Assembly: GCA_965215515.1 (NCBI GenBank)
Contig: OZ244057.1
Location: 1,184,001-1,248,000, forward strand
DNA length: 64,000 nt
Reading direction: 5' to 3'
DNA from: Oligoflexales bacterium
GTDB taxonomy: Bacteria > Bdellovibrionota_B > Oligoflexia > Oligoflexales > JAPPIL01
Part shown: positions 25,692 through 26,887 of the stretch, piece after piece
Numbering within the stretch: position 1 is the stretch's first letter
Layout of the letters: each line of letters begins with the position of its first letter
Translations under genes and position numbers: made by a program
The notes under the pieces: model-generated
The model's input: the letters and a program-made list of their open reading frames with translations, nothing else
The model's database searches: none
Told to the model about the DNA's origin: nothing

Positions 25692-26594
25692 CTACGGTAT
25701 GCCCGTGAGGACTGTCTTCTGGCGCGCAGAAAGGTCAGGTAATCCCGCGAAAGCCGCTAAAGGGTAGCGGGGTGGCTTTTGGAAAGGATTAGCGATAAAG
25801 CTTGTATAGGTCATATAACGATAGAGCAGAATATGCCGCATACCTTTCTGGAGACGGCTACCGTAGTGAAAACAACGTGAGGTATCGACGAACACCGCAG
25901 TACCTTTGCGGCCTGTAATACTCACGACAGCCGTGTCGGGATCGAGCAAGCTATACATGTCTGCATCGGGAATACGACGACGGTTGTGCCAGTTGTAGCG
26001 CAGCTTACGCCGTACTCGCTGCGAGAGGGGCGCGGGAATGAGACACAGAGGGCCGTTGTCAGCATTAATATCGTCGAGAAAGATAAACACCTTGATCTGG
26101 TAAGTGTCTGAATGATCGAGATGCCAGAGCTGACTACCCTTTCTCGGGGCAGTGCCCGCGGGCAACGAGCGCCAGATAAAGATATAGGGCAGCACGGGAA
26201 TGTGTCCTAAATAATGGGCAACAGGGACGACAAGCTCGTCGGACAAACCGTAGCGCAGGATGGCACGCTGTGCGATCAGATCATGGGGCAGCAGAATACT
26301 GCGCAGAAACCCGTTACCTTCCAGAGAATAATCCACCGCAACATCTCGCTGAGCGACGATCTGCACAGCACTCTCGATAGCCCGTGTCCGCAACTCAGAG
26401 GTCGGTGGCAGAACGAGGTAACCACGCGCACCGATACTATGCTTCGTCTCGGGCAAAGCGGACAGTAGCCGCTTGCCCGCGGCTATCCTCGACCGACAAA
26501 ACGAATACGCCGCGAGCTTATAAAGCCCGCGGCGTAGATTACCCTGAAAGAAATGATTGCCAGGACTGCGACGCAGACTATCCAGCAACGACAA
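25692..26594 (-). CDS. Fe(II)/2-oxoglutarate-dependent dioxygenase (PhyH-like), candidate RiPP tailoring enzyme
   Basis: HxD in SQLWHLD, KVFIFLDDINADNGPL, distal His and Arg in CFHYGSR...MRHIL; starts 5 nt after the NHLP precursor stop. Confidence 0.8.
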   Translation of the reverse strand: MSLLDSLRRSPGNHFFQGNLRRGLYKLAAYSFCRSRIAAGKRLLSALPETKHSIGARGYLVLPPTSELRTRAIESAVQIVAQRDVAVDYSLEGNGFLRSILLPHDLIAQRAILRYGLSDELVVPVAHYLGHIPVLPYIFIWRSLPAGTAPRKGSQLWHLDHSDTYQIKVFIFLDDINADNGPLCLIPAPLSQRVRRKLRYNWHNRRRIPDADMYSLLDPDTAVVSITGRKGTAVFVDTSRCFHYGSRLQKGMRHILLYRYMTYTSFIANPFQKPPRYPLAAFAGLPDLSARQKTVLTGIP

Positions 26595-26599
26595 GTGCG

Positions 26600-26887
26600 C
26601 TACTCGTTACCAGTGTAGTCACACCCGCCTGCACAGTACTGAGTGTAGCTACCCGCGTAGACACTGCCAAGCTCCTCAACGCTGGTGACGGGCGAACTCG
26701 GCAGCACGAGATGTTTCGTCGTCTCACTGTCCTTCACCAAATTGATCGTCTTGCCTTCGGGCACAGGAATCCCCGCCTTGCGCAACTCAGCGGCGGGATC
26801 ACCATCGACCTGTCGGGCAAAGCCAGCATCGCCATGGTAGCGCGCCACAAACTCTACCCATTTTTGATTCGTTTCCGAAGTAGCCAT
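26600..26887 (-). CDS. NHLP (nitrile hydratase-like leader) RiPP precursor peptide
   Basis: ARYHGDAGFARQVDGDPAAELRKAGIPVPEGKTINLVKDSETTKHLVLP...VEELGSVYAG leader followed by short core SYTQYCAGGCDYTGNE; AAGGAGG RBS. Confidence 0.85.
   Translation of the reverse strand: MATSETNQKWVEFVARYHGDAGFARQVDGDPAAELRKAGIPVPEGKTINLVKDSETTKHLVLPSSPVTSVEELGSVYAGSYTQYCAGGCDYTGNE

Follow-up and report, generated by a model that had tools for sequence, protein, structure and literature searches.

Precursor and oxygenase genes in the window

The DNA considered here, called the window throughout, is a stretch of 64,000 nucleotides from an Oligoflexales bacterium (GenBank assembly GCA_965215515.1, contig OZ244057.1, positions 1,184,001 to 1,248,000), and it forms part of one 2.18-Mb contig of that genome (G000). 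On its minus strand it carries a small open reading frame (ORF) resembling the precursors of RiPPs (peptides made by the ribosome and then modified after translation) with a nitrile hydratase leader peptide (NHLP), and the gene for a PhyH-like Fe(II)/2-oxoglutarate (2OG) oxygenase; five bases (26595-26599) lie between the stop of the first and the TTG start of the second (Table 1). The two ORFs, of 95 and 300 residues, and the 5-nt gap lie where an earlier note on this DNA had placed them, and the leader strings and core that it quoted, with three tyrosines and a C-x3-C pair, are all present in the translation. The interpretation that we favour, and to which we give about an even chance, is that the pair belongs to a split NHLP-type pathway for a thiazole/oxazole-modified microcin (TOMM, a linear azole peptide), in which the oxygenase is a tailoring enzyme.

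Table 1. Features of the precursor and oxygenase locus (window positions) and of the distant accessory island (contig positions)
Feature	Position	Strand	Basis
Precursor ORF, 95 aa	26600..26887	-	ORF call, as placed in the earlier note
Precursor leader part, residues 1-79, end ...EELGSVYAG	26651..26887	-	TIGR03793 match, AlphaFold2 model
Predicted core, residues 80-95, SYTQYCAGGCDYTGNE	26603..26650	-	Translation
Precursor stop TAG	26600-26602	-	Raw sequence
Shine-Dalgarno AAGGAGGG, 6 nt upstream of precursor ATG	26894..26901	-	Direct sequence reading
Terminator-like hairpin and T-run, directly upstream of precursor ribosome-binding site	26917..26944	-	Consensus scan
PhyH-like Fe(II)/2OG oxygenase, 300 aa, TTG start at 26594	25692..26594	-	Pfam PhyH, fold
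Accessory island, about 13 kb	G000:C1:1496411-1509724 (locus L174 4412-17725)		Family models
Island gene 1: SagB-type dehydrogenase			TIGR03605 135.1 bits, cut-off 78.4; ThcOx and nitroreductase domains
Island gene 2: fused leader-binding/YcaO cyclodehydratase, about 830-868 aa			TIGR03882 75.1 bits, cut-off 36.9
Island genes 3-4: two lipoprotein-like proteins, 702 and 294 aa			No Pfam or NCBIfam match
Island gene 5: NHLM ABC2			TIGR03797, 513 bits
Island gene 6: NHLM C39-peptidase ABC1			TIGR03796, 769 bits
Island gene 7: NHLM HlyD adaptor			TIGR03794, 68 bits

A strong Shine-Dalgarno sequence precedes the precursor gene, and the oxygenase, on the same strand, is probably translationally coupled to the precursor. 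The region has three terminator-like sites where shuffling predicts 2.2 ± 1.8, which is not significant alone, and a scan of the region for promoters and terminators gave counts no higher than chance. A further, strong hairpin (14 pairs, 9 of them G-C), followed by a T-rich stretch, occurs at 26506-26536 on the minus strand, soon after the precursor gene and some 60-90 nt into the oxygenase coding region; it could attenuate read-through from the precursor to the enzyme, such sites being at chance level in the region.

Precursor leader and core

We take the precursor for a divergent NHLP-clan member whose leader is structured and whose core is floppy, because the NHLP leader model TIGR03793 matches both the ORF and its relatives, and because the AlphaFold2 model of the ORF has a folded leader and finds a proteusin precursor in the PDB. 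The profile covers residues 13-76 with its positions 9-74 (of 77); the E-value is 6.2e-8, and the score of 32.4 bits does not reach the curated cut-off of 50.9 bits. In this form the match sustains the earlier note's view that the ORF is a precursor of the NHLP clan whose short core is rich in Cys and Tyr. All 13 aligned precursor relatives match TIGR03793 at E <= 0.001, the best at 6e-23. These relatives are numerous: an exhaustive phmmer search of 1.84 billion representatives returned 507 at E <= 1e-3, and a word-index search with the precursor returned only the self match. The structural model, built on the alignment of the relatives, is folded over residues 1-50 (pLDDT 73-92) and disordered over residues 74-95 (pLDDT below 50). 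Its top Foldseek match in the PDB is 8tb1, the nuclear magnetic resonance structure of a proteusin precursor (E = 4.8e-3, probability 1.00, 35% identity), followed by 9cjx; in E-value terms this fold support is weak.

The predicted core contains a C-A-G-G-C pair among its 16 residues. In P0064, 60% identical to the precursor, the sequence after ...AG is SSGNNYCDGGCSYTGNE, and in P0065, P0214 and P0215 (about 50-59% identity) it is TC[SA]CHGGCATCNG. The window core and those of its nearest relatives thus have C-x-G-G-C in common after the leader end AG, with Gly directly before the second Cys; among the three core types only this motif is invariant, while Tyr, Asp, Asn and His positions vary. 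Cys, Ser and Thr make up 5 of the 16 core residues in the window ORF and 7 of 13 in P0065. The leader ends as ...VYAG/S in the window ORF and as ...AAG/T or ...YAG/S in the relatives, from which a cleavage site after AG (Ala78-Gly79) is predicted.

NHLP-like domains are also found in other contexts. Many of the precursor relatives, of about 180-250 residues, contain a tandem pair of them (P0068-P0078 and many others). Others stand at the N-terminus of the large proteins P0066 (491 aa), P0079 (548 aa) and P0217 (615 aa), and another lies inside a 641-aa ORF of the congener G001 (L171, G001:C1:2467207-2467389). P0217 is encoded on a contig of 2,558,385 bp, as are one precursor, two dioxygenases and one YcaO protein. 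Judged from these sequences, the large-protein fusions may reflect a general use of the domain as an export tag.

The PhyH-like oxygenase

The enzyme next to the precursor is, as the earlier note had described it, a PhyH-like dioxygenase of the HxD...H type. It scores 23.9 bits against Pfam PhyH (PF05721; cut-off 22), and 10 of 32 homologs match this family at E <= 0.01; no NCBIfam model matched the window enzyme, and Pfam finds no recognisable RiPP recognition element (RRE) in it. Residues H158, D160, H243 and R253 are invariant across the 32 aligned homologs. The first three are the predicted metal ligands, with R253 nearby, which we take from the PhyH family to be the 2OG-binding arginine. 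The AlphaFold2 model is of high quality (pLDDT 90.1), and its top Foldseek matches in the PDB are ColD, proline hydroxylase H11, HygX, GriE, SnoN and EctD, all with probability 1.00, TM-scores of 0.43-0.55 (normalised to query length) and 12-19% identity. These proteins share with the window enzyme the double-stranded beta-helix fold and the HxD...H triad, but they act on free small molecules. A profile of the oxygenase family against PDB sequences gave no match below E = 0.9, and the ESM Atlas returned only unnamed PhyH-like clusters.

The gene is single-copy in the genome. A word-indexed search found 62 homologs, with a close clade (P0002-P0011) at 49-79% identity and the others at about 30-40%. 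Within the close clade a helical motif at the N-terminus is fully conserved (P11, G12, F15, F16, Q17, R21, R22 and Y25 in 11 sequences), and of this motif R22 alone is retained in the distant homologs. With the N-terminal helix of MppG as the model, we speculate that the motif is a candidate leader-contact element. A prediction of the complex between oxygenase and precursor (score 0.02, mark 0.32) is evidence in neither direction.

Recurrence of the precursor-oxygenase pair

Co-occurrence was judged from the longest contig carrying each protein; where two proteins had contigs of identical size we infer that they share one contig, and "same contig" is used below in this sense. The four nearest precursor relatives all have a dioxygenase relative on the same contig, with dioxygenases 52-76% identical: P0064 with P0003 (98,212 bp), P0065 with P0009 (10,994 bp), P0214 with both P0010 and P0011 (2,558,385 bp) and P0215 with P0008 (2,849,281 bp). 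The 10 more distant NHLP relatives that served as a control include none on the same contig as any listed dioxygenase or YcaO protein. On this sequence evidence the pairing of precursor and oxygenase looks real.

Distant homologs of the oxygenase have other company. Contigs of genomes and metagenomes were scanned for oxygenase homologs (best 80 of 102 and best 80 of 145, respectively), and among the matches listed none exceeded 43% identity. When the precursor was compared by phmmer with all ORFs of 87, then 167, oxygenase-homolog loci, only self matches were found. Recurrent neighbours in the 167 loci are CMP-sugar cytidylyltransferases (CTP_transf_3, 24), ATP-binding cassette (ABC) ATPases (19), NeuB (14), methyltransferases (12 and 7) and HAD proteins (8), and Pfam confirmed the NeuB, cytidylyltransferase, methyltransferase, HAD and ABC assignments in six example loci. 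These loci (L003-L167) come from Actinomycetota, Acidobacteriota, Bradyrhizobium and others. Since distant homologs stand beside NeuB, CMP-sugar, methyltransferase and ABC genes, the wider oxygenase family is not peptide-specific; the neighbourhoods suggest that the distant branch modifies nonulosonic acids or glycans. The earlier note had proposed examining the neighbourhoods of dioxygenase homologs, and the outcome differs by branch: close homologs co-occur with NHLP precursors on the four contigs above, and distant homologs do not.

The same could be thought of the window enzyme, namely that its substrate is a small molecule or a glycan and that it came to lie next to the precursor by co-transfer, the precursor being matured by the TOMM and export island described below and by nothing else. 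Such an origin would fit the sugar-pathway and ABC genes beside the distant homologs, the small-molecule substrates of all the closest solved folds, and genome G003, which has an oxygenase homolog without a detectable precursor. The 5-nt spacing to the precursor speaks against it, as does the close-clade oxygenase on the same contig for all four nearest precursor relatives and for none of the 10 distant ones, and there is no sugar-pathway gene near the oxygenase in the window. We consider an unrelated oxygenase distinctly unlikely.

A distant modification and export island

The genome encodes one C39 peptidase domain and one YcaO protein, and these are close together, in the accessory island of Table 1 (region read, G000:C1:1492000-1511900), about 286 kb from the precursor (G000:C1:1210600-1210887). 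Besides its leader-binding match, the fused cyclodehydratase scores 261.8 bits against Pfam YcaO (cut-off 25.7). The 702-aa and 294-aa proteins gave nothing below E = 0.18 against PDB sequences; they could serve for immunity or as additional maturases.

The island has exporters of the NHLP-specific type and no recognisable substrate. None of its small intergenic ORFs is NHLP-like. Over the whole genome TIGR03793 has one match at E <= 10, which is the window ORF, and in an unfiltered search of 41,547 ORFs of at least 30 residues with a hidden Markov model of the precursor family the window ORF is again the only match below E = 1; Nif11 leaders are absent from the genome at the cut-off. A 93-aa ORF next to the HlyD gene, ending in ...PACGSCANKH, was considered as an island precursor and rejected, as it is a core gene in 20 of 21 relatives without the island and has no family match.

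We regard the island as accessory, and the cassette in the window too, because the YcaO fusion is found at E <= 1e-20 in none of 60 relatives, the C39-type NHLM exporter in none of three family relatives (best match 259 bits, starting at model position 161 or later), and the oxygenase in two of 131 genomes of the phylum (G000 and G003). The corresponding metG/orf93 site in the congeners G001 and G002 has no island genes.

These findings qualify two statements of the earlier note. That YcaO, LanM and C39 proteins are missing from the window holds (Pfam, 52 ORFs), but beyond the window the genome has both a YcaO protein and a C39 transporter. The search in trans that the note had proposed led to the C39-peptidase exporter, and it revealed no other NHLP precursor in the genome. 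With SagB, a YcaO fusion and an NHLM exporter encoded elsewhere on the contig, and no precursor beside them, the note's central proposal of a minimal cassette whose oxygenase is the sole maturase is not supported beyond the window.

We looked for the same combination elsewhere among YcaO relatives (best 120 of 5432, reaching down to about 40% identity). P0220 (72%) is on the same contig as dioxygenase P0002 (79%; 117,527 bp), P0227 (44%) as dioxygenases P0010/P0011 and precursor P0214 (2,558,385 bp), P0228 (42%) as dioxygenase P0218, of the 90% cluster of P0007 (53%; 986,576 bp), and P0223 (56%) as the precursor-like P0067 (183,863 bp). The identities of each YcaO relative and of its paired partner fall in step.

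A self-sufficient cassette, in which the oxygenase alone hydroxylates the core or forms an oxidative Tyr/Cys cross-link and the island serves another substrate or none, contributing at most cleavage and export, nevertheless has arguments in its favour. The two genes are tightly coupled, the pair recurs on the same contig in four assemblies, one contig being only 10,994 bp long, and the N-terminal motif of the close clade, lost in the distant glycan-associated homologs except for R22, could bind the leader. What is left as its main support is that the contigs of 2,849,281, 98,212 and 10,994 bp have no YcaO protein among the matches listed. On the other side, the island exporter is NHLP-specific, no precursor was found there and the window ORF is the only NHLP ORF of the genome; YcaO and dioxygenase relatives co-occur on three contigs; the cores resemble azole substrates; and the oxygenase has no RRE recognisable by Pfam. 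An oxygenase acting as sole maturase therefore seems unlikely to us.

It is also conceivable that nothing is tailored at all and that the NHLP domain is a cleavable C39 export signal, releasing a 16-mer that stays unmodified or forms a disulfide within CxxxC. The fusions of NHLP-like domains to large proteins (P0066, P0079, P0217 and the 641-aa ORF of G001) hint at such an export tag. Dedicated SagB and YcaO genes beside the exporter, a conserved oxygenase partner and cores rich in Cys, Ser and Thr all point the other way, which makes an export-only role very improbable.

A proposed split azole pathway

The simplest explanation for finding, in one small genome, an NHLP-specific island that lacks a precursor and a single NHLP precursor elsewhere is a pathway divided in two. 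Because the genome also carries, far from the window, the ring-forming enzymes and the export pump typical for such precursors, the oxygenase is probably a helper and not the sole tailoring enzyme. The gene content, family assignments, positions, spacing and co-occurrence pattern are observed directly; for the chemical steps, their order and the residue targeted by the oxygenase we infer the following scheme. The window would supply the precursor, whose structured NHLP leader of 79 residues ends in AG and precedes the 16-residue core. The oxygenase would bind the precursor and oxidise a core residue, most likely by C-H hydroxylation of a side chain or the backbone. The YcaO fusion and SagB would convert the cysteines of C-x-G-G-C to thiazol(in)es and possibly turn Ser/Thr into oxazol(in)es. 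Finally, the C39-ABC protein would cut after AG and, together with ABC2 and HlyD, export the product.

Several observations weigh against this scheme. About 286 kb of DNA lie between the precursor and the YcaO island. Adjacency of precursor and oxygenase is proven in none of the co-occurrence cases, the tightest bound being the 10,994-bp contig. For the contigs of 2,849,281, 98,212, 10,994 and 3,215,909 bp there is no YcaO protein among the best 120 of 5432, so that some genomes may have the precursor/dioxygenase pair without a cyclodehydratase. The fused cyclodehydratase falls just below the cut-off of the SagD/YcaO model TIGR03604 (217.3 against 219.25 bits), as the leader falls below that of TIGR03793. 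The distant oxygenase homologs, at about 30-43% identity, adjoin glycan genes and not peptides. G003, the one relative read at the DNA level, has its dioxygenase (57% identity) at a contig edge; the 275 nt upstream of the gene, up to the contig end, contain no NHLP ORF, and the genome, at 86% completeness, yielded no precursor, YcaO protein or C39 exporter.

The same G003 locus contains a 69-aa Cys-rich ORF (L083 70-279, plus strand) without NHLP similarity, a putative gene that shares 4 nt with the beginning of the dioxygenase homolog.

A bolder version of the split pathway takes the close clade (P0001-P0011) to be a new leader-dependent, peptide-modifying branch of PhyH enzymes that performs an undescribed oxidation at or around C-x-G-G-C, alone or together with azole formation, and thereby defines a new subclass of NHLP RiPPs in a little-studied phylum (131 species-level genomes), with a mobile module of precursor and tailoring enzyme and a distant module of cyclodehydratase and exporter. 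We hold this to be doubtful.

If the split pathway is correct, it is a RiPP pathway in which the precursor and one tailoring enzyme are encoded far from the core maturases and the exporter. Mining by clusters, or inspection of 64 kb, would wrongly score this layout as an orphan TOMM island or as a minimal cassette. A divergent, uncharacterised PhyH clade would also be tied to peptide substrates in whose core C-x-G-G-C is conserved. What is new is the PhyH-clade tailoring enzyme, the family of cores with C-x-G-G-C and the two-part layout; no long-standing question is opened, as it is already established that Fe/2OG enzymes tailor NHLP peptides and that there are TOMMs of the NHLP type, and present evidence does not make this a new RiPP class. 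Real and conserved, the system is also easy to test, since a 95-aa precursor and three enzymes make a small and tractable co-expression system.

Relation to known systems

NHLP/Nif11 precursors are a recognised group of TOMM substrates (PMC4603692), and an azoline-forming YcaO enzyme recognises structured NHLP leaders (PMC12455567). Like these systems, the window has an NHLP-clan leader with a Gly-type cleavage motif and a short core with Cys, Ser and Thr, and the genome has a leader-binding/YcaO fusion, SagB, a C39-ABC protein, a second ABC protein and HlyD (TIGR03794/03796/03797). In contrast to them, the window precursor is not in a cluster with these enzymes but at the distance given above, it has a PhyH-like oxygenase as partner, and its leader scores below the curated NHLP cut-off.

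The Fe/2OG hydroxylases PoyI (polytheonamide), PhaI (phaeornamide) and EreI (pythonamide) tailor peptides of the NHLP family (PMC9505594). In each case, as in the window, the gene of an Fe/2OG enzyme accompanies that of an NHLP-leader precursor, and the enzyme is expected to act on the core as a hydroxylase. The genes of PoyI, PhaI and EreI belong to large clusters that also encode radical SAM, LanM or other maturases, whereas the partners of the window enzyme would be YcaO and SagB in trans. Because Fe/2OG hydroxylases on NHLP precursors have thus already been described, the earlier note's candidate new RiPP type is too strong a claim.

Its label "proteusin-type" does not fit either, because no radical SAM epimerase is near the pair among the 52 window ORFs scanned. 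The note had seen no radical SAM protein in the window at all, which is almost right: there is one, a biotin-synthase-like protein with a BATS domain (43084-44166).

Two further Fe/2OG hydroxylases act on RiPP precursors, in the curacozole and mpp pathways. CzlI, a JmjC-type enzyme flanking the curacozole azole cluster, needs sequence outside the core (PMC11575548). MppG is strictly dependent on a long structured Nif11 leader and has an N-terminal helix and an RRE (bioRxiv 10.64898/2026.10.04.756588). Unlike the JmjC-type cupin CzlI and the RRE-containing MppG, the window enzyme is of a divergent PhyH type with no Pfam RRE. In the literature covered, where papers were in part accessible and most subscription journals lay outside the scope, we found no description of an NHLP precursor with a PhyH oxygenase and a YcaO protein; the arrangement is not thereby shown to be unpublished.

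Genomic surroundings

The cassette has a GC content of 0.54-0.57, which is not deviant. An empty-site comparison with the congeners G001 and G002 was set aside as not clean, since the gene order differs at the tdh junction. Among the contigs of three runs, the full stretch is present in one X1 record, and short identical fragments occur in X5 and X6. Elsewhere in the window, eight consecutive ORFs of 168-696 residues (33771-42772) have no Pfam match at E <= 1e-6. An unusual ORF of 1793 residues (2528-7906, plus strand) fuses AIG2/GGACT, indoleamine 2,3-dioxygenase, FAD/NAD-binding reductase, cytochrome b5 and adenylate/guanylate cyclase domains.

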